A stretch of DNA of 64,000 nt from an uncultured Candidatus Saccharibacteria bacterium (GTDB lineage Bacteria; Patescibacteriota; Saccharimonadia; Saccharimonadales; UBA4665), in assembly GCA_964541145.1 (NCBI GenBank), contig CAZIOX010000006.1, forward strand, positions 1,899-65,898, given 5' to 3'. Position 1 is the first letter of the stretch; the number at the start of each line of letters is the position of its first letter. Shown one piece after another: positions 4,545 through 64,000 of the stretch. The position numbers and the translations under genes are program-made. The notes beneath the pieces were generated by a model that was not told where the DNA came from, made no database searches, and saw only the letters and a list, made by a program, of their open reading frames with translations.

Positions 4545-6611
4545 CTATGTTACGGGTTGTTTCGGTGATGAAAGGAGTGAATGGAGTAGCTTTCTTATAC
4601 CCAACCTAAAGCCCTCGACCTGCTGGGGTAGTACTGCAGGCGCGACCGGGCGATCGAGAGGAGTCTCTGGCACTACCTGATCCTGCGGTTGCGGACTGCT
4701 AGAATCCCCGTCGGTCTTTGTTATGACAGGCGCATCTTGGAGTGGTTCGGAGTAGCTAGGGAGCGCAAGCACTTGACCCAGAAACTGCTCTGCGCTATCG
4801 ATGTTTGGGCGTGTGATCATAAGTATAGGATCAAGTCGTCGTACTTGACGCTCCAATGTTGCCGTAAAGGAGTCATGCGTCTCGGATGAAAGCGCAAGAA
4901 GCTCCCCTATCTCCCGATCGAGTCGTTCTACCTCTGCTTCTACTACACTATACTCAGTCCGATCTTTTTCGCGCACCTGCTCATAAGCACTCTTCGAGGC
5001 TTCGAGCTGCTTGATAGTCTGGTGGAGTTGTTCCAAGGTATCGGCAACTTCTACTGGTAGGTATCTGGAGCTATACGATTCATAGGTCATAAACAGGCGC
5101 CCCTTAGCATCTTCATCCCCGTGTTCCGCCCATTCTTCATCCGCCAACTGTTGGTCGTGCTGCGTTTGCAAATATGCACTACGGGTATCTACTTCGGTCT
5201 TTTTTGCTCGATGTATACCTGATATTTTCTCACCAATCTGCCGGGTGGCAGTTTGTATCTGATCATTGAGCTGCCGCAGGCGGGAGCTTGCCGCCTCCCA
5301 GGCTATATTCTTCTCCTGGCCAACCGCCAATAATCCTCGTAGTGTGCACCACGTCTCGTCTGCCATACCAGCGAGTTCTACATACCCTTCGCTGACAGCC
5401 CATACTTGCTGCTCCAGAGGTGTTAGTATTGCCAAATGTCGCTCAGACTCCGTTAAAATTTCACTAAGATAGCGTTTTTTCGTTTCTACTACAGTCATCT
5501 GCTCAGCTTCAAGCCTGGTGAGCACTCCGTCGACAACCTGCACGATAGCATATAGGTTGCTTATCTCCTCAGACATGCGAGCTGGTTGTTCTGGAATCTG
5601 TTGAGTATCACCACCGACACTGGATCCCGTCGCAGTCTCTCGTCCGAAAGATACGCCCAGCAGAAAACTCCGAACTCGATCCCTCTCTTCACTGCTTGGC
5701 GCCGCTGCAATATAGTCGAGTACCGGAATCTCTGGTAGCTCAGCCATATCTGGCATATCTAGCGTAGGGACTTCTTCTGAAGGGTAGCTTCCGCCTGTCA
5801 CAAAACTTTGGTATATACCCTGTAGGTCTTCGCTGTAGCGCTCTAGGGTAGCCAACAATACCTCACCGTATGCTCCAAACGTTTTTTCGCGTTCTGCGAG
5901 CGCCTGCTTCGCTTGCTGTACCACGGCACCGTGCTCAAGCCGAACTTTCTCTGCCTCTGCAAGATCATTTTCCGTACGACGGAGTTCCTTAATGCACTTT
6001 TCAGTCTTTGAAATGGTTTCTAGTACGTTGTTGTATGCACCTCCGTTGCCTTTTCCCTGACGCAACAAGTCACTCGCTGTTGCTGAGGCCGCATCTTGTT
6101 CCTGCTGGGTATCTGCACGAGCCTTATCAGTATCGGCCACGGCACGCTCGTGCTCTGTAGCACGGGTAGTGAGCTCGTTTTCGCAAACACCGACATGATC
6201 TCGTACTGCATCGTCCACGTTCCAGCCAAAGGCGAGTACTACCAAGCTCCCGCGTATGTCGCGTAGGGCTTCTTTTCGTGTCTTCAGAGCACAGTCAAAA
6301 CGATCCATCGCTTCTGTAACCGTCTGGCAGTCTGCTGTACATTTTTCTAAGATTGCCGCCGAAAGCTCGGTCAGACGCTTCCCCAATTCTAATGCCTCCT
6401 GAACTTTCTGAGCACACTGGATGGTTTCACCCGAAGCTTCTTCGGGGAGCATACCCACTCGCAGCATTGTTTTCCGGGTGGCGATCTCTTCTGGCGTAAA
6501 AATCCGGGGCGAAAAACAGTCAACCGGTCGCTCGATTTGTGTTGTAACGACCCTCGTATGACACGCCTCTGGGATCGGCATACCTAGGATTTCGGGTGCC
6601 TGTGTCGTCAT
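4545..6611 (-). CDS. Large coiled-coil protein, 688 aa, no TM helix seen
   Basis: I moved the start to ATG 6611 (MTTQAPEIL). It overlaps the upstream stop as ATGA (6608-6611) and is preceded by GGGAGG plus 7 nt. The protein has long E/A/L/R/Q heptad-like stretches and a P-rich C-terminus. Confidence 0.7.
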   Translation of the reverse strand: MTTQAPEILGMPIPEACHTRVVTTQIERPVDCFSPRIFTPEEIATRKTMLRVGMLPEEASGETIQCAQKVQEALELGKRLTELSAAILEKCTADCQTVTEAMDRFDCALKTRKEALRDIRGSLVVLAFGWNVDDAVRDHVGVCENELTTRATEHERAVADTDKARADTQQEQDAASATASDLLRQGKGNGGAYNNVLETISKTEKCIKELRRTENDLAEAEKVRLEHGAVVQQAKQALAEREKTFGAYGEVLLATLERYSEDLQGIYQSFVTGGSYPSEEVPTLDMPDMAELPEIPVLDYIAAAPSSEERDRVRSFLLGVSFGRETATGSSVGGDTQQIPEQPARMSEEISNLYAIVQVVDGVLTRLEAEQMTVVETKKRYLSEILTESERHLAILTPLEQQVWAVSEGYVELAGMADETWCTLRGLLAVGQEKNIAWEAASSRLRQLNDQIQTATRQIGEKISGIHRAKKTEVDTRSAYLQTQHDQQLADEEWAEHGDEDAKGRLFMTYESYSSRYLPVEVADTLEQLHQTIKQLEASKSAYEQVREKDRTEYSVVEAEVERLDREIGELLALSSETHDSFTATLERQVRRLDPILMITRPNIDSAEQFLGQVLALPSYSEPLQDAPVITKTDGDSSSPQPQDQVVPETPLDRPVAPAVLPQQVEGFRLGIRKLLHSLLSSPKQPVT

Positions 6612-7897
6612 CGTGAAGCCTCCCGAATATTTCCGCAGCTCCAATGAGTGTTGACCACTTTTATCCCAAGCTGATCGGCCGTTAGAGGCTTGTTGACTGC
6701 TGCATATACATCTGCTGGCGGAACAAAAGATCCAACATACACAACCTTCAGGCCGGGTGCTTGCTCACTCACCTGGGCAGCGAGCACTTTTTCTGCCGCC
6801 GCAGCTATGTCTGCGCCACAGGTAGTTTTACCCAGTGTCTTTAAGCCCTCTGCGGTAAGATATTTGAGATATTCTGTATTTTTTGGTTCAGCCGTGAGTC
6901 GTTTATTGAGGTTTTCTACTTCTTCTTTGGTAAAGATGGTTGGCCCGGTAGGCAGCGAAAACTGAGCATTCTCGTACCATGCCTGCGGGTTGGTAGCGCC
7001 CGTACCCGGAAGGGCGGCTAGTGAGATCAACGAACGGTTGATCGTTACCATGCCCTGGGCAGTATCTGCTTTGATAACATCGCCCACTGGCTTTTGTAAA
7101 CAGGCGGCAATTGGCACCGTACCCACATACCCGGCTTGCAGAAGACGCGCTTCTGTTGGTGGCTGCGGGGCGCTCGATGGGGCAGATGTGGCCGCTGGCG
7201 CACTCGTCGCGGCGCTGGCACCTGGACCTGGAGTGGTAGTGTGGGTGGATGGAGCTGGGTTGGCACTCGGCTTTTGGACATCTTTCGGCAGCAATAGACG
7301 TTGCAACTCAGGTTGGGTTTCGAAAAAGCCAGTTAGTACTTTGGGTTTATATGCGGGATCCGCCGCGGACTTTTGTACCTCTGCGTCAGTTGCTTTCACG
7401 GTTATTTTAAGTAACGAGTCGCCTTGGTAGTCGAGTGGTACGCTAACGATAGACTGTAGGCAGTCTGGCCCAACAATATTCGGTGCGCTTTGGGGAGGTT
7501 CTACGGGGATGAACTTTTCCTTTACAAAACTACGAGCTATTCCCAGAGCCTCACCTGGCGTCGTCTCTGTTTTGACGAGTGCTACGGTTCCGGCTACAGT
7601 CAGCCCCACGCACGCCACAGCCAGCCGTTTGCGAGCAGTCCCCCATAGCACTGGGCCTAGTGGACGCCGTCCTTCTTCTGTACTCACTTCATCTGGATTT
7701 GCTCGGCTGTCCCCCACGGGCATTCTCCGGGGGACTGCGATACCTGGAAATGGCTCTCCTCCAGTGTTACTTGAAGATGCAGGAGTCGACTGGTTTTGTA
7801 ATGCTTTAAAAAAGGCATCGAAAGACGCGGAATCATGAGCTGGGGTTCCGCTCTTTTCCTCTCCGTTAGGTCCATGTTGTTCGGGTCGAGTACTCAT
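6608..7897 (-). CDS. Single-pass membrane protein, 429 aa, unknown ectodomain
   Basis: The N-terminal ~90 aa look disordered, followed by a TM helix (LAVACVGLTVAGTVALV). The ectodomain contains an S/A/P/T low-complexity insert and several Cys. The gene starts 2 nt after the upstream stop. Confidence 0.7.
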   Translation of the reverse strand: MSTRPEQHGPNGEEKSGTPAHDSASFDAFFKALQNQSTPASSSNTGGEPFPGIAVPRRMPVGDSRANPDEVSTEEGRRPLGPVLWGTARKRLAVACVGLTVAGTVALVKTETTPGEALGIARSFVKEKFIPVEPPQSAPNIVGPDCLQSIVSVPLDYQGDSLLKITVKATDAEVQKSAADPAYKPKVLTGFFETQPELQRLLLPKDVQKPSANPAPSTHTTTPGPGASAATSAPAATSAPSSAPQPPTEARLLQAGYVGTVPIAACLQKPVGDVIKADTAQGMVTINRSLISLAALPGTGATNPQAWYENAQFSLPTGPTIFTKEEVENLNKRLTAEPKNTEYLKYLTAEGLKTLGKTTCGADIAAAAEKVLAAQVSEQAPGLKVVYVGSFVPPADVYAAVNKPLTADQLGIKVVNTHWSCGNIREASR

Positions 7898-44871: not shown

Positions 44872-45492
44872 TTATTTCTCCTCCCCGCGGATAACAACGA
44901 TCCCTTTACGTGGACCAGGCACGGCACCGACGACGCCGATGTAGCCTTTTTCTGCGTCAACGATAGCTACCGTAAGATTACGTACCGTAACTTGGTCGTG
45001 TCCAAGGTGACCCGCCATTTTTTTACCAGGTAAAATATGCTGTGGATACATAGAACCGATAGAACCAGGCCGGCGATAGCTGCGACCACCGTGCGTTTTG
45101 CGTCCACGGTGGAAGTTGTGGCGACGGATAGTGCCAGCCCATCCCTTGCCTTTGCTTGTGCCAGTCACATGCACGGTGTCCCCAACTGAAAAGACCTCGG
45201 CGTTGATGGTTTCTCCAACTTTGAGGTCTCCGGTGATTTGTGGGACGCGAAACTCGCGCATAATACGCACGACCTGCTTAGCTCCCTTAAGATGTCCGAC
45301 TTGCGGCTTTGCTACTTTGTGTTCTTTTACTTCCTCGCAGCCGATTTGGATGGCAGTATAGCCGTCTACTTCATCGGTTTTCACCTGTGTAATCACACAG
45401 GGACTAGCGGAAAGCAAGGTGACAGCCTGTAGAGTACCGTCGCTACCGATGGTACTTGTCATGCCAACCTTTCTCGTAATGAGTGCCTTCAT
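44872..45492 (-). CDS. rplC: 50S ribosomal protein L3
   Basis: MKALITRKVGMTSTIG starts at ATG 45492. An alternative in-frame ATG at 45510 would add MTWCKT. Confidence 0.95.
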   Translation of the reverse strand: MKALITRKVGMTSTIGSDGTLQAVTLLSASPCVITQVKTDEVDGYTAIQIGCEEVKEHKVAKPQVGHLKGAKQVVRIMREFRVPQITGDLKVGETINAEVFSVGDTVHVTGTSKGKGWAGTIRRHNFHRGRKTHGGRSYRRPGSIGSMYPQHILPGKKMAGHLGHDQVTVRNLTVAIVDAEKGYIGVVGAVPGPRKGIVVIRGEEK

Positions 45493-45745
45493 AGTTTTGC
45501 ACCACGTCATATGCTACCAGATGACGTGCTCCTTTATGGTTAATATTTGTCGAACGGCTGCTTTTTGGATCTTGTACACTGATACAAAAAACGTGGTGGT
45601 CGACGGTTTCTACCCCTGTTACGAGCGGACCTTTCCGACATCACCAACACAACGAGTGTTCGTACGTACCTTACAGATTACCATGTAAAGATAACACCTG
45701 TCAACCTGTTGTATAAACTACATGATCTAAGCGGTCAAACACTGC

Positions 45746-46066
45746 CTATAGCGTTATAAAAAGTCCAAACGGAGCCAAGAACCCAAAAAATCCCGCTATG
45801 ATCAATACGGCAATTTCTATACGCCGTTCCATCCGAAAATGTTCGTGAGAGGCAAAAAACAGCCCTACGGCTAAACCAATCGGCAGAGGTACGTGCAAGT
45901 TGCTGCCAGTTTTTGTTATTTTGATCCACAGAGATGCCAAGATAACATACAAGGTTAGTTTTAGCACAAAAGCTCCATCGCTGTTTGAAGTCTTTTTGCT
46001 AGCAGGTTTTTTTGAGGCGGCAACCTTAGAAACAGATTTTGTACCATTTTTTTTGTTTTTGTTCAT
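45746..46066 (-). CDS. Small membrane protein, 106 aa, K-rich N-terminus, about 3 TM
   Basis: MNKNKKNGTKSVSKVAASKKPASKK is followed by LTLYVILASLWI, LPIGLAVGLFFA and IAVLIIAGFFGFLAPFGLFI. Confidence 0.6.
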   Translation of the reverse strand: MNKNKKNGTKSVSKVAASKKPASKKTSNSDGAFVLKLTLYVILASLWIKITKTGSNLHVPLPIGLAVGLFFASHEHFRMERRIEIAVLIIAGFFGFLAPFGLFITL

Positions 46067-46148
46067 CTACAAACAGTATACCAGGTCATCACTCTCATCT
46101 CAAGGCATTGACGCTTACCAGTTATGAGACTACCCACACCTGCGTGGA

Positions 46149-47657
46149 CTAGGCGGCTCTATCAAGTAGCTCGTCGAGTTCATACGACTTTTGTTTCGAG
46201 TAGCCGATAATGCCGGCGCCGATGTTGTTGACGCGTTTCTGTATACACTTCAGCCCTCCCAATCGTTCTCCGCCTACCTTGTAGCCGTCATGTGAAGCGC
46301 GTTTGCCGACACGAGCACGGTGACGATCGGCTCTTGTTTGAATCATGATCTCGACTGGCGTGCCATCGAAGTCAATTGCAGCCTTGACAACTCGAAATTC
46401 TTTTTTATGCGTTCTTAGATCCTCTTTGATCGTACTGACATCGAGTCCAACTTCGCACATCTCATTTTTGATTGTTTCGATATAGGCCTTGTCGCCACGA
46501 ACATCGAGACCGGCTACGGTTGGGTCGTTCGACGCCAGGGTGGCATGGTTGCTTTCATAAATGTTTAGCTGCATTTGGCAGAATACATCACAGAGCTGCG
46601 TCATATTATCTACGACAATAGTCAGCCCAACCATGTCCAGCACTTTTTGTCCTGGTCGCTTAAACATTTTCATGGCATATGATCCGAGCGATTTTCGTCT
46701 CCAAACCACTTGAAACGGATCCTCACCCTGTATATCACGCTGGAGCCTAGATTCACCGACAATGATGTCGTGGTCGGTGTTATCTTCAAAGCAGTGTTTG
46801 CTGACGAGAGAACCGCCAAATATGTCGTGTAGAACGCTATCGACGATCTGTAGGGTTTCCTTGCGATCATACGGCTCAAGTCTCTTTTGAGCTTCCTCGA
46901 CAACACTGTGTAGACCCAGCTTTTTGAGACGAAGCACGTTTGCGGCGCTCCTGAGAGCCATTGCAACACCATCAAAGCCCATTGCTTCGTTTATCTTTGC
47001 AAACACCTGGGAGTCAAAAATGTGACGGAGAATCGTTGTGTCTTTGCGCGCTGGCGTTTTCAGCCTATCGATATGCCTGATAGATTCTTTATTAACTGCT
47101 TCGACATTCACGTGATTCAACATGGCATCAATACGTTCAAGGGGCGCGGGAGGCAAGTCAAAGTTCCATAGCGCCTTTGAGACAGGTTCATCATCGTTTG
47201 AGTCGATAATGCTTGCGATCTCTGTTCCTTGTAGTGTGTGGTCACGGATTACATCGAGATGCGTACGAAGCTCTCGACCGTCAACCAAAAAAGCAGCTGT
47301 TTTACGCCATCGTTTGGGTGGTTGAGTACTCCGATATTCACGCAATGCTTGTATTGCCAGTGTCTGCTCACTAACCTCAATTTCTGAGCTTGGCTGGCTC
47401 ATTACCGCTTCACCGATCGCCTGGAGTAGCGTAGCCCGCTTAATACCCTTTCCAATGCCCTTTCCATCGCTAAAATCGCATAATTCTACATACGTACGTA
47501 GTGTATATTGCAAAATACGCAGCGCTGAATCTGGATCATTGAGTTCATCCGTGTAGCCTACGAGTGTTTTCACCTCTGGGAGAAAGTCAGGTGCGACGTG
47601 CTCAAGCGAGGCCACTACGCCTTCTGTACCAGGCAGATCAAACCTTGAAATAGCCAT
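46149..47657 (-). CDS. Divergent RelA/SpoT-like (alarmone-synthetase-fold) nucleotidyl/pyrophosphotransferase with a ~330-aa unknown N-terminal region
   Basis: The C-terminal third carries synthetase-type blocks: RRKSLGSYAMKMFKR (R-x-K-x3-S-x3-K), LDMVGLTIVV (D-x2-G), PVEIMIQTR (the EIQIRT equivalent) and ASHDGYK (H-x2-YK). The GY-x-S-x-H block is replaced by EFRVVK. No HD hydrolase motif is seen. Confidence 0.65.
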   Translation of the reverse strand: MAISRFDLPGTEGVVASLEHVAPDFLPEVKTLVGYTDELNDPDSALRILQYTLRTYVELCDFSDGKGIGKGIKRATLLQAIGEAVMSQPSSEIEVSEQTLAIQALREYRSTQPPKRWRKTAAFLVDGRELRTHLDVIRDHTLQGTEIASIIDSNDDEPVSKALWNFDLPPAPLERIDAMLNHVNVEAVNKESIRHIDRLKTPARKDTTILRHIFDSQVFAKINEAMGFDGVAMALRSAANVLRLKKLGLHSVVEEAQKRLEPYDRKETLQIVDSVLHDIFGGSLVSKHCFEDNTDHDIIVGESRLQRDIQGEDPFQVVWRRKSLGSYAMKMFKRPGQKVLDMVGLTIVVDNMTQLCDVFCQMQLNIYESNHATLASNDPTVAGLDVRGDKAYIETIKNEMCEVGLDVSTIKEDLRTHKKEFRVVKAAIDFDGTPVEIMIQTRADRHRARVGKRASHDGYKVGGERLGGLKCIQKRVNNIGAGIIGYSKQKSYELDELLDRAA

Positions 47658-47902
47658 ACTTATATTTTAGCATACTATCCTGATTTTGTCCAGTTTCTAT
47701 ATCCGTCCACCATACATTGGACTGTTGTATTGGTAATCGTAACAAGTCCTATAAGTTCAGATTAGCTTTTTTGGCACTGAGCCCTAGGTAGCACATAGCA
47801 CGCGTCAAATGATCCCATATGACCTGATTCTCATCAAATAAAATGGAAGACAGTATCCATACTCATAAACTTGAGAAATGTTCATGTAAGATGCTATGTG
47901 TA

Positions 47903-48346
47903 TCATAGTTGTTTCTGGTATTCATCACCCAATCTCTTACTGGGCATGTAGCCAAATGAACGGAGTAAGTCTCTCATCCCAACTCTTTCTTCTTCTACGC
48001 TTGCACGCACAATATTGGTTCCACTAGCCAGTGCCGCCGCCTCGATCGCTTCTAGAAGGTTTTTTGCCCGACCTTCGCGCTGGTTTTTTGGGTTCGTGGC
48101 TAAGAACACTATTTCCAATGCCTCACCTATTGTATGGGTGGCCGCAGCAGCAGCTGTGACACACCCACTTGTTGGATCTTCCACTATAAATAAATCTGTA
48201 GCGACACATTCTCCAAGGGTTCTTAATAGACCTTCGTCCATCCCAAACGGCTCACGGAAAAGTTCGAGTACACCATTAAAAAGGTTTTGATCCGTTAAAA
48301 ATTTTTCGGAGCCAATATTTTTGACAACTGAATTTAATTCAGACAT
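47903..48346 (-). CDS. GNAT-family N-acetyltransferase, 147 aa
   Basis: The acetyl-CoA motif-A-like block is IVFLATNPKNQREGRAKNLLEAIEAAA (Q/R-x-x-G-x-A). Confidence 0.65.
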   Translation of the reverse strand: MSELNSVVKNIGSEKFLTDQNLFNGVLELFREPFGMDEGLLRTLGECVATDLFIVEDPTSGCVTAAAAATHTIGEALEIVFLATNPKNQREGRAKNLLEAIEAAALASGTNIVRASVEEERVGMRDLLRSFGYMPSKRLGDEYQKQL

Positions 48347-48449
48347 GAAACTTATTGTATCATGTTTTTTTATTTTTGTCTACTAAACTGCCTATATGAC
48401 GCGTACCGGCTATTGTCTTTACGCAAGCTTTTCGTGTTTTCCAAGAATG

Positions 48450-48782
48450 TTACATCTTGATTTCGACGTCGCAGCCAGCGGGGAGGGAGAGGTTCATGAG
48501 GCTGTCGATGGTCTTTGGAGTCGGTTCAAACACGTCGATGAGGCGCTTGTGGACGCGCATTTCGAACTGTTCACGGCCTTTTTTATAGACGTGCGGGCTT
48601 TTTACCACCGTAAAGGTACTTTTGCGCGTGGGTAGTGGTATAGGTCCAGCAAGGCTAGCGCCAGTGCGCAAGGCTGTGTCGACAATCTGCTTGGCTGCTT
48701 GGTCAATGATTTTGTGGTCGTAGGCCTTCAGGCGTATACGAATACGTTGTTTGCCTGTTGGTGCTTGGGTGGCGTCTGCCAT
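48450..48782 (-). CDS. rpsJ: 30S ribosomal protein S10
   Basis: [41 protein letters not shown]. Confidence 0.95.
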
Positions 48783-48996: not shown

Positions 48997-49407
48997 CTAG
49001 CGTTGCTTCTTGCGAAAGCGTATAACATGGGCAGCTTTTTTGTGGATTGACCGCTTGGGCGGTTGCGCAGAATATTCGGCGAAGATGGTGTCGATAAAGT
49101 CATCCATTTCTGTGTCAGTCATATCTGAGGCAGCCCCTTCGCCACCAAGATCGTCACGGTACTCTACCGTAGCTATACCAGTGCGAAAACTGTGCATGCG
49201 GTCGTAGGCACGACGAGCAACGGGGTCTTTGAGGGTGGCGTACGCTTTATTGAGCTGCTGCATATGTTCTAGCGACCCTCCTGCATCAGGGTGCTGGTGT
49301 TTGGCGAGTTTCATAAAAGCAGCTCGAATCTCAGTAGGCAAAGCACCCGGCTCTACCCCTAACAACTTGTACAGGTCAATAAAACTTTCGTAAGCTCCCT
49401 CTGCCAT
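48997..49407 (-). CDS. J-domain (DnaJ-like) protein, 136 aa, no Zn-finger or C-terminal DnaJ domains
   Basis: DLYKLLGVEPGALPTEIRAAFMKLAKHQHPDAGG, which contains the HPD motif. The acidic middle is followed by a basic tail (RFRKKQR). Confidence 0.8.
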   Translation of the reverse strand: MAEGAYESFIDLYKLLGVEPGALPTEIRAAFMKLAKHQHPDAGGSLEHMQQLNKAYATLKDPVARRAYDRMHSFRTGIATVEYRDDLGGEGAASDMTDTEMDDFIDTIFAEYSAQPPKRSIHKKAAHVIRFRKKQR

Positions 49408-50971: not shown

Positions 50972-51226
50972 TCACTTTTCCAGACGATCTTGTTGGTTGT
51001 CTCGTGCCACATTGTCGGAAATGATGTCTTCTATGCGCTTCATGTGCGAGTCAAGTACGCTGTATATATGGTTGAGCTTACTGTCTATCTCGTCAAACCA
51101 CTTGTCGTGTTGAACCAGCTTTTGTTCAACGCCGAACAAGCGGGTGTCCATGGCATCAAATCGATTATTTACCAAAGTGAACTGTTCAGAAATGGTCTGC
51201 GACACGTCAGACACGACTCCAATCAC
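50972..51226 (-). CDS. Small coiled-coil protein candidate, 84 aa, GTG start
   Basis: The sequence is heptad-like (FDAMDTRLFGVEQKLVQHDKWFDEIDSKLNHIYSVLDSHMKRIEDI). It lies between fusA and tuf, in the same frame as the fusA stop. Confidence 0.4.
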   Translation of the reverse strand: MIGVVSDVSQTISEQFTLVNNRFDAMDTRLFGVEQKLVQHDKWFDEIDSKLNHIYSVLDSHMKRIEDIISDNVARDNQQDRLEK

Positions 51227-53407: not shown

Positions 53408-53773
53408 TTATTTCGTACCATTTGTTTTGTTAATTAAGCCTGTTAGTACTTTGTGGCACGCTATGCTCGCTTCATCCAGCTCTTGGTATACATGATTTTG
53501 TATATAGCGAACGTCCTTTGCCACCAATAGCTGCGCTTGAACCTCATGCAATGAAGCCCGCGCCATATCGTAAAAGTGCGTTCGATCTGCCATAGTTCTT
53601 CGGCCAAATCCTTCTGCTATATTCGAAACAATTGATACGGTTGATCGCCGGATTTGATTGGTAAGACCGAAAATCTCATCTTTTGGAAAATCTTTGGTAA
53701 TCTTATAGATTTCTAAAGTTAAAGCATGTGACTTTTGCCAAGCAATGAGGTCTCGAAATGTATGGATGCTCAT
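53408..53773 (-). CDS. Four-helix-bundle protein of the '23S rRNA intervening-sequence protein' family
   Basis: FRDLIAWQKSHALTLEIYKITKDFPKDEIFGLTNQIRRSTVSIVSNIAEGFGR matches the family signature (W-Q-K-A, Q-x-R-R-A-x-x-S-I-x-x-N-I-A-E-G). 121 aa. Confidence 0.8.
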   Translation of the reverse strand: MSIHTFRDLIAWQKSHALTLEIYKITKDFPKDEIFGLTNQIRRSTVSIVSNIAEGFGRRTMADRTHFYDMARASLHEVQAQLLVAKDVRYIQNHVYQELDEASIACHKVLTGLINKTNGTK

Positions 53774-63430: not shown

Positions 63431-64000
63431 CTAATGTTTTGGGGGTGTAGAGATGACTTTATCGACAATGCCGTATTTGAGCGCCTCCTGGGCGGTCATC
63501 CAGCGGTCACGTTCCATGTCTTCATGGATTTTTTCGGGCTTTTGGCCAGTATTTTTTGCCATGATGCATTCAAGCAGTTTCTTTATGCGCAGAGACTCAC
63601 GCAGGTCAATTTCCTGGTCAGTCACCTTTCCGCGCGTGCCGCTGCTGGGCTGATGAATCATAACTGTCGCGTTTGGCAACAGATAACGCTTTCCTTTCGT
63701 TCCGCTACTCAGTAGAAAAGCAGCAGCACTTGCCTGCACCCCAATACCGACCGTTTGCACGTCGTTTGCGATGTACTGCATAGTATCGTAGATAGCTAGC
63801 GCGTCGTAGACACTGCCGCCGGGACTATTTATGTATAGGTATATATCTTTTTTTGCGTCCTCACTCTGTAGAAACAAGAGTTGTGCCACGATAAGGTTCG
63901 CCGTGGCTTCGTTGACATCGCTTCCCAGGAATATTATTCGCTCCTTCAAGAGACGGCTAAATATATCATAGGCGCGCTCATAGCGACCTTCGCTTTCGAT
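63431..64000 (-). CDS. clpP: ATP-dependent Clp protease proteolytic subunit (5' end outside window)
   Basis: The frame stays open to the window end (..[22 protein letters not shown]). Also present: YINSPGGSV, a Ser in GVQASAAAF, a His in MIHQP, and [11 protein letters not shown]. Confidence 0.9.

Follow-up and report, generated by a model that had tools for sequence, protein, structure and literature searches.

The window analyzed here is a stretch of 64,000 nucleotides (nt) from an uncultured Candidatus Saccharibacteria bacterium, and its minus strand carries the str/S10 cluster of ribosomal genes of this Saccharibacteria (TM7) genome, in the order rpoB, rpoC, rpsL, rpsG, fusA, tuf, a gene for a J-domain protein, rpsJ, three extra genes, rplC, and rplD onward. 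The three extra genes, which occupy positions 45493-48449 together with their spacers, encode a GNAT-fold acetyltransferase, a 502-amino-acid protein that resembles the RelA/SpoT homologues (RSHs), and a small membrane protein. The initial annotation, made from the letters of the DNA, described them as an accessory island and as a candidate toxin-antitoxin, stress or defence module directed at translation. On the comparisons reported here, we consider it probable that the stretch is instead a spacer between rpsJ and an operon headed by rplC, serving as a tolerated landing place for separately transcribed accessory genes that include a divergent pyrophosphokinase derived from RSHs. We do not treat the three genes as one unit, because their phylogenetic distributions differ.

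Organization of the rpsJ-rplC spacer

The genes of the stretch and its two flanks, in the direction of transcription, are as follows.

48450-48782, minus strand: rpsJ (ribosomal protein S10), the upstream flank; Pfam Ribosomal_S10 2.7e-35, NCBIfam rpsJ_bact 1.2e-42 and PRK00596 1.4e-46
47903-48346, minus strand: GNAT-fold acetyltransferase, 147 amino acids; Pfam Acetyltransf_1
46149-47657, minus strand: RSH-like protein, 502 amino acids, the whole open reading frame (ORF); family profile, family members, predicted structure with Foldseek
46818-47657, minus strand: predicted all-helical pseudo-hydrolase (HD-like) domain at the N-terminus of the RSH-like protein, about residues 1-280; AlphaFold model, Foldseek, motifs in relatives
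46149-46817, minus strand: predicted synthetase (pyrophosphokinase) domain of the RSH-like protein with a short C-terminal helical tail, about residues 281-502; conserved residues, profile matches
45746-46066, minus strand: small membrane protein, 106 amino acids, three hydrophobic helices; tblastn matches in the rpsJ-rplC gaps of relatives
44872-45492 (alternative start 45510), minus strand: rplC (ribosomal protein L3), which opens the downstream operon; NCBIfam L3_bact 1.9e-67

In its description of the locus, the initial annotation was accurate. The ORF positions on the minus strand and the library matches of the flanks agree that three same-strand genes separate rpsJ from rplC, and the gap lengths that it gave (103, 245, 82 and 253 nt, in order from rpsJ to rplC) are exact with the rplC start set at 45492. 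GC content is lower in the three-gene stretch than in the window, as it had said (0.449 versus 0.503), the four gaps measuring 0.350, 0.367, 0.476 and 0.439. Its fold calls are likewise borne out, by Pfam Acetyltransf_1 for the GNAT, by the family profile and Foldseek for the divergent RelA/SpoT-like enzyme, and by three hydrophobic stretches for the small membrane protein. The GNAT and small membrane genes each lie more than 2 standard deviations (sd) under the mean gene GC; the GC content at third codon positions (GC3) of the GNAT gene is 0.365, -2.3 sd from the mean, and the low value of the small membrane gene fits its lysine-rich, hydrophobic composition. The composition of the RSH-like gene is native-like, its GC of 0.481 and GC3 of 0.473 lying close to the means of the window (0.506 and 0.514).

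A predicted RSH-derived family in Saccharibacteria

Single-sequence searches with the 502-amino-acid protein against Pfam (E <= 0.1), NCBIfam, PADLOC, PHROGs and the sequences of the PDB returned nothing meaningful, and a word-indexed search found one relative, at 54% identity. Its homology to RSHs became visible only through an exhaustive HMMER profile scan combined with a family profile: the scan recovered about 240 representative clusters, mostly of about 500-610 amino acids among the matches listed, and the family profile matches RelSeq (2e-7), S. aureus Rel (4e-7), FaRel2 (7e-7) and RelA (4e-6). Conservation counts given here and below refer to an alignment of 80 family members, while the search for family loci used a 10-sequence alignment, the 80-member set being too diverse. 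The Pfam RelA_SpoT family (PF04607) is matched by 51 of the 80 (E <= 0.01, best 1.5e-9), the window protein being unmatched at E <= 0.1, and Pfam HD is matched by 7. Four residues never vary among the 80 members: R320, K322, D341 and E436, which align with RelSeq R241, K243, D264 and E323. Near-invariant are K330 (78/80), which aligns with RelSeq K251, and H456 (79/80), as well as G325, K425 and R449. Ten family members were checked for names in their sources; two carried one, in both cases "hypothetical protein", and two RSH classification papers make no mention of Saccharibacteria or of the Candidate Phyla Radiation (CPR) (PMC3153485; PMC7229694).

An AlphaFold model built with the family alignment (pLDDT 94.6, pTM 0.93) contains an HD-type domain followed by a synthetase domain, which is the domain order of long RSHs. 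The top 15 Foldseek matches in the PDB are all long RSHs (N-terminal halves of SpoT, RelA and Rel), with 393-493 aligned columns, and CapRel appears at rank 19 with an E-value of 0.13. In relatives of the window protein, the hydrolase-like domain carries the motifs HPxRV, AALLHD (LHD), KSAEMLDNL and YAPL, the ED pair not being kept. The hydrolase site itself (RelSeq H53, H77, D78, E81, D82, D144 and N148) reads Y51, Q79, A80, E83, A84, R194 and R198 in the window protein, in which every metal ligand is lost; across the family, the H, H and D ligands are kept in only 34-39 of the 80 members, and the ED pair is mostly D/Q-R. No TGS or ACT match was found with Pfam in the window protein or in any of the 80 members, and the protein ends at residue 502, about 60 amino acids past the synthetase core, with no extra C-terminal domain in the model. 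Taken together, the alignments, profile matches and model place the 502-amino-acid protein in a Saccharibacteria family, so far unannotated, that derives from the N-terminal half of long RSHs and whose synthetase active site is predicted to be intact.

The RSH-like protein is most likely a pyrophosphokinase or alarmone synthetase under transcriptional control. We propose that it would use ATP to pyrophosphorylate a nucleotide at its 3'-OH, (p)ppGpp being the default guess for its product. As a protein predicted to be unable to sense the ribosome, it would have its output set mainly by its transcription, a mode of control that fits its constant position beside ribosomal operons.

Genomic position of the RSH-like gene

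In the members closest to the window protein, the RSH-like gene lies after rpsJ, between rpsJ and rplC (the window and loci L003/4, L007, L016, L085, L086/87, L140 and L141). Its immediate neighbors at this site vary, from the GNAT gene in the window to a PfkB gene on the opposite strand (L003), a gene for a 141-amino-acid unknown protein (L086), a 280-amino-acid ORF on the opposite strand (L140), or none (L085, L141). At about 45 more distant loci (L089-L137), an RSH-like gene of 525-729 amino acids, with versions of about 707-729 among them, stands in the block rplA, (thyA, dcd), tmk, RSH-like, rplJ, rplL, dnaX, and thus in the company of nucleotide-metabolism genes. In L094, for instance, it spans 5575-7152 with the Rfam L10 leader directly downstream at 7185-7305, an order repeated in L100, and the gene at 5395-7518 in L114 is also of the tmk-rplJ type. 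A cluster of ORFs opposite rplJ ("c4" in our clustering) is probably an antisense artefact of ORF picking. At both sites, the RSH-like gene borders the start of a ribosomal operon.

Two family members are found on IMG/VR contigs. One of them (L138 508-2809; IMG/VR UViG_3300008472_000016) lies at a contig end, with a NUDIX hydrolase gene immediately preceding it and PDDEXK and AAA_24 genes following, and this viral-labelled stretch may be host flank. NUDIX is also the commonest rpsJ-rplC cargo, as described below. A NUDIX enzyme could supply the hydrolase activity that an RSH with a dead HD domain lacks.

The rpsJ-rplC junction across Saccharibacteria

To place the junction among relatives, 80 species-representative Saccharibacteria loci were collected with L3, and tuf, S10, L3 and L4 were located in each; distance statistics come from the 63 loci that hold both rpsJ and rplC. 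The closest L3 matches of the window are all Candidatus Saccharibacteria/Saccharimonadales, at up to 91% identity. Across the 63 genomes, rpsJ and rplC are separated by 140-4794 nt, with a median of 1438, and by less than 300 nt in 4 only. When the 181 ORFs of these gaps were clustered with 4 window proteins, 88 remained singletons, and the Pfam families among the 96 larger gap ORFs are mostly metabolic, including NUDIX (12), adenosine deaminase, HAD phosphatases, CTP synthase and PfkB kinases, with beta-lactamase and lysyl-phosphatidylglycerol (lysyl-PG) synthase among them too. The spacer between tuf and rpsJ is likewise enlarged in Saccharibacteria, with a median of 632 nt.

Because the gap ranges so widely in these 63 genomes and its contents are highly variable, the rpsJ-rplC split is a lineage-wide trait and an insertion hot spot, and no peculiarity of this genome. 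In the comparison of the junction in relatives, which the initial annotation had proposed, the split is shared, the three genes do not recur as a set, and the cargo is mostly metabolic. In the cultivated Saccharibacterium Southlakia epibionticum ML1, a hypothetical gene of 321 nt lies between rpsJ and rplC (SEML1_0474-0476) and is non-essential by transposon sequencing (Tn-seq) (PMC10633639, Table S1).

The GNAT and the small membrane protein

The GNAT scores 23.1 bits with Pfam Acetyltransf_1, above the cut-off of 20.7 (E 9.3e-5), and carries the acetyl-CoA motif A as QREGRA at residues ~89-94 (pattern Q/R-x-x-G-x-G/A). No homologue was found among 5.8 billion proteins or in phage or plasmid collections, so far as these sources reach the gene being present in this strain only. 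Searches of NCBIfam (E <= 0.1) returned no RimI, RimJ or RimL model, the best match being ablB, whose 21.7 bits fall far short of the cut-off of 205, and searches of PDB chains (E <= 1) returned no solved GNAT toxin, the single match being an unrelated ATPase. The 103-nt gap upstream holds no RHH/DUF1778 antitoxin, only a promoter-like site, and a single-sequence AlphaFold model reached a pLDDT of 48, too low for fold comparison with TacT/AtaT or RimI. The GNAT is probably a recent or fast-evolving acquisition.

The 106-amino-acid protein has a basic N-terminus, three hydrophobic stretches and an HEHF..DRKIEYA motif. By tblastn, members of its family lie inside the rpsJ-rplC gap in 39 of the 63 genomes, in most cases immediately before the rplC promoter; the family is restricted to Saccharibacteria, its source name is "hypothetical protein", and no match to it was found in Pfam or the PDB. 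Its alignment is invariant at D30, K36, W47, P62, G64, R81 and G101. We infer that this small protein is specific to the lineage and dispensable.

Putative promoters of the three accessory genes

Each of the three genes is preceded by a promoter-like site.

48354-48382, minus strand: GNAT promoter-like site, TAGACA-17-TACAAT, extended -10; 10/12, ends 7 nt before the ATG, no Shine-Dalgarno
47664-47692, minus strand: RSH-like promoter-like site, TGGACA-17-TAAAAT, extended -10; 10/12, ends 6 nt before the ATG, no Shine-Dalgarno
46075-46103, minus strand: small membrane gene promoter-like site, TTGAGA-17-TATACT, extended -10; 10/12, ends 8 nt before the ATG, no Shine-Dalgarno

These are the three best sigma-70-like matches of the region and all lie on the minus strand. 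Of the 57 gene starts in the window, the remaining 54 show no such arrangement at 10/12, and most of them carry a Shine-Dalgarno sequence. In 11 of 29 homologues of the membrane gene, a -10 hexamer stands 5-9 nt ahead of the start codon, where the background is 1.5%. The number of promoter-like sites in the region is at chance (8 versus 6.5 expected), so that only their position and strand are informative. The suggestion of the initial annotation that the gaps contain independent promoters therefore finds support in these extended -10 sites, placed 6-8 nt before each of the three ATGs, and the arrangement suggests that the three genes would be made as leaderless, monocistronic mRNAs.

A conserved promoter and leader RNA upstream of rplC

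The 253-nt region upstream of rplC is conserved across the phylum and contains two further features.

45675-45704, minus strand: rplC operon promoter, TTGACA-18 nt-tgGTAATCT, extended -10; conserved in relatives
45580-45652, minus strand: structured 5' leader RNA of rplC, with a long, irregular hairpin and then a U-run; covariation, covariance model 57.8 bits

The TTGACA of the promoter lies at 45704-45699, and its distance to the GAAACC core of the leader is fixed at about 93 nt in most of the 80 loci, the core itself being invariant. In an alignment of 59 leaders, the hairpin consists of a CUUGGUG/CACCAAG pairing with inner helices that enclose the conserved loop UAACAGGGGUAGAAACC, and the U-run follows. 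Pairing is present in 93% of alignment cells, against 84.6% in shuffles, of which 0/500 reach 93%; cells with double changes number 59, against 19.9 expected from shuffles; controls with slid partners pair in <=54%; and compensatory changes occur in 8 of the 14 base pairs. A covariance model built from 44 sequences was searched against 91 sources (1.09 Mb, both strands) and gave 79 matches, one per locus (nearly all Saccharibacteria loci). Every match that was inspected sits just upstream of rplC, including many at loci outside the training set, and within the window the model matches once only, at the leader given above. Against Rfam 15, the leader has no match at the gathering score or at E <= 10.

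Because this conserved promoter and covariation-supported leader are specific to the region upstream of rplC, rplC appears to start its own operon, so that on the present sequence comparison rplC and not rpsJ heads the large ribosomal-protein operon. The leader of the E. coli S10 operon is an attenuator controlled by L4. By analogy, the rplC leader is a candidate ribosomal-protein-responsive attenuator, which would be bound by a ribosomal protein much as that leader responds to L4. We know of no ribosomal-protein leader RNA described before in this phylum, and the rplC leader is a strong candidate for a new one. With rplC at the head, the operon map is redrawn as well. The TM7x rpsJ promoter, which had been predicted to be strong, was chosen to drive hph and worked (Wang et al., 2023; PMC10633639), a result that fits rpsJ as a separate unit.

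Just upstream of the rplC -35 element, at 45708-45721 on the minus strand, lies a conserved motif (consensus approximately GTAGAATTTGCAAC, here gtagtttatacaac) that could serve as an UP element or as the site of a regulator. Antisense ORFs of 73-87 amino acids upstream of rplC (L005 807-1028, L007 6721-6945 and L016 5143-5406, minus strand) were rejected as genes, being conserved leader DNA read on the wrong strand.

Neighboring genes of the translation cluster

Other spacers of the cluster hold additional genes. The J-domain protein between tuf and rpsJ (48997-49407, minus strand; 136 amino acids; Pfam DnaJ 9.7e-15) has homologues at the same place in L006, L007, L028, L030, L031, L059, L086 and L140. 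Between rpsG and fusA, a gene for a 121-amino-acid protein (53408-53773, minus strand; GC 0.404) is a further insertion within the translation gene cluster; its product is a "23S rRNA-intervening sequence protein", a four-helix bundle that matches Pfam PF05635 at 1.8e-36. The spacer between fusA and tuf contains an 84-amino-acid ORF (50972-51226, minus strand) that has no Pfam match. Directly upstream of rpoB, clpP (63431-63949, minus strand; Pfam CLP_protease 2e-72) stands in place of rplL, and rplKAJL must therefore lie elsewhere in this genome.

Alternative explanations

Several observations weigh against the reading of the stretch as a permissive spacer that carries an RSH-derived pyrophosphokinase ahead of an independent rplC operon. 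Positions that in RelSeq contact the substrate are changed in the RSH-like family, the equivalent of R269 being T in 71 of the 80 members, that of H312 being K in 78, and that of Y308 being F in 34 and Y in 33 (an aromatic residue at the base-stacking position in 67), and with these substitutions the product could differ from (p)ppGpp. Only some Saccharibacteria carry the family, which occurs at the rpsJ-rplC site in 2 of the 63 genome loci, and its place beside ribosomal operons may come from selection for co-expression or merely from spacers that are stable and permissive. The promoters remain putative, as their assignments are consensus matches and not mapped transcription starts. The homology of Southlakia SEML1_0475 to the 106-amino-acid family was assigned from position, strand and length only. 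Finally, the leader of the window is no more stable than shuffled sequence (z = +0.78), its support being conservation and covariation, and thermodynamics alone therefore could not have revealed it.

The changes at the substrate contacts could mean that the RSH-like family is a pyrophosphokinase whose acceptor is a macromolecule or otherwise unusual (the tRNA CCA end, some component of the ribosome or adenine nucleotides, for example), and that it acts as a built-in regulator of translation outside any toxin-antitoxin system. It is consistent with this that the R269, H312 and Y308 equivalents are substituted while the ATP/Mg catalytic core is invariant, and that the gene recurs at two different ribosomal-protein operon boundaries, a constant place that a role in regulating translation would explain. 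Moreover, cultivated Southlakia epibionticum ML1 encodes a separate, canonical protein with HD_4, RelA_SpoT and TGS domains (SEML1_0554, 511 amino acids) that is non-essential (PMC10633639, Tables S1 and S2); (p)ppGpp synthesis may already be covered by such a Rel, and the RSH-like family, a distinct divergent branch, need not be the only alarmone synthetase. However, acceptor specificity cannot be read from sequence, F or Y is kept at the base-stacking position in 67 of the 80 members, and the genomic position may be neutral, so that we judge an unusual acceptor to be unlikely. A more far-reaching proposal, to which we give a low chance, is that the 502-amino-acid protein represents a new RSH class (dead hydrolase, R269 to T, H312 to K) with a non-canonical product or a target in the translation machinery, replacing ribosome-sensed stringent control, in these epibionts of reduced genome, by a circuit wired to transcription at ribosomal-operon boundaries, beside an undescribed, Saccharibacteria-specific rplC attenuator. 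The presence of a canonical Rel also bears on the more conservative alternative that the initial annotation had offered, in which these would be housekeeping genes, the organism's only alarmone synthetase and a ribosomal-protein acetyltransferase, placed here for co-regulation. That alternative comes closer to the mark for the RSH-like gene but does not hold in the form given, as the GNAT matches no RimI/J/L model and, with a canonical Rel in a cultivated Saccharibacterium, the RSH-like protein need not be the sole synthetase.

We regard it as highly improbable that the GNAT, the RSH-like protein and the membrane protein work together as a toxin-antitoxin, stress or anti-phage module against translation, in which aminoacyl-tRNA would be acetylated and tRNA pyrophosphorylated or (pp)pApp made. 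Both enzyme folds do have toxin members, the family profile matches FaRel2, one of the toxic small alarmone synthetases (toxSAS), and the acceptor-site residues of the RSH and the GC3 of the GNAT gene are atypical; each gene has a promoter-like site of its own, and of the two family members on IMG/VR contigs one lies near phage-like PDDEXK and AAA_24 genes. Against this, the three genes are never found together elsewhere: the GNAT is confined to this strain, the membrane protein is present in 39 of 63 relatives irrespective of what else the gap contains, and the neighbors of the RSH-like gene change, so the idea of a single module is not upheld. No antitoxin-sized or conserved partner stands beside the RSH-like gene in the loci compared, no RHH/DUF1778-type gene precedes the GNAT, and PADLOC gave no match at E <= 1 for any of the three genes. 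The RSH-like enzyme is not of the toxSAS type that had been considered, as it has the two-domain architecture of a long-RSH N-terminal half and not that of a single-domain small alarmone synthetase (SAS), with SpoT, RelA and Rel filling the top 15 Foldseek ranks ahead of CapRel; the GNAT has no PDB match at E <= 1 save the one unrelated ATPase; and the position of the RSH-like gene is stable and vertically inherited across members 26-54% identical to the window protein. Marks of a mobile element are lacking as well, a search for flanking repeats having found short chance repeats only and no island boundaries, with no integrase and no tRNA nearby. The same result counts against a recent genomic island that moved horizontally, in one piece, into an intact rpsJ-rplC junction. 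Such an island would account for the lower GC of the stretch and for the two genes that fall more than 2 sd under the mean, but in nearly all Saccharibacteria rpsJ and rplC are already separated, the membrane and RSH-like genes are old residents of the site, and the RSH-like gene is native in composition. Transfer in a single recent piece is contradicted for two of the three genes, and we give it scarcely any credence.

Significance

To our knowledge, growth control in Saccharibacteria and other CPR/Patescibacteria, which are reduced epibionts, is almost unknown. The present analysis exposes in Saccharibacteria a RelA/SpoT-derived family that standard annotation has missed, and its combination of altered substrate-contact residues with the lack of sensor domains makes it a testable case of alarmone rewiring in minimal genomes. 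One soil Saccharibacterium has been described as unable to make (p)ppGpp (Starr et al., 2018; PMC6031116), and a family unseen by annotation bears on statements of this kind (that genome was examined at the rpsJ-rplC locus only). In addition, a lineage-wide permissive site between two essential genes, in which the resident small gene is dispensable by Tn-seq, could serve the genetic engineering of Saccharibacteria.

Comparison with known systems

Among known alarmone enzymes, the long RSHs (RelSeq 1vj7, S. aureus Rel 7oiw, SpoT 7qpr and RelA 5iqr) come closest to the RSH-like protein. They share its two-domain fold, motifs like HD1, HD2, HD5 and HD6 are recognizable in relatives of the window protein, and the equivalents of RelSeq R241, K243, K251, D264 and E323 are conserved. 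Like E. coli RelA, the RSH-like protein couples a dead hydrolase domain with a synthetase. It differs from the long RSHs in being without the TGS, helical, zinc-finger and RRM/ACT domains of their C-terminal halves, in having lost the HD metal ligands, as about half of its family has, and in the replacement of R269 by T and of H312 by K. With the toxSAS and CapRel enzymes (FaRel, FaRel2, PhRel2, CapRel and Tas1) it has in common an RSH synthetase fold that is free of ribosome-sensing domains, and the family profile matches FaRel2 (7e-7). In contrast to them, it has an extra pseudo-HD domain of 280 amino acids and a stable chromosomal position, neither an antitoxin gene nor a SAH gene adjoins its own, PADLOC does not match it, and CapRel ranks 19th, with an E-value of 0.13, among its structural matches.

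The GNAT of the window resembles both the TacT/AtaT/ItaT/KacT toxins and RimI/RimJ/RimL in its GNAT fold with the acetyl-CoA motif A and in its similarly small size of 147 amino acids. It differs from the former in that it has neither an upstream RHH/DUF1778 antitoxin nor a sequence match to the solved toxins, and from the latter in that it matches none of their NCBIfam models. The rplC leader, like the leader of the E. coli S10 operon and the L10 leader (RF00557), is structured, conserved and placed directly before the first gene of a large ribosomal-protein operon, and its hairpin is followed by a U-run, in the manner of an attenuator. Unlike known ribosomal-protein leaders, to which it has no sequence or Rfam similarity, it is so far found at Saccharibacteria loci only, and whereas the E. 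coli leader stands upstream of rpsJ, the Saccharibacteria leader stands upstream of rplC.

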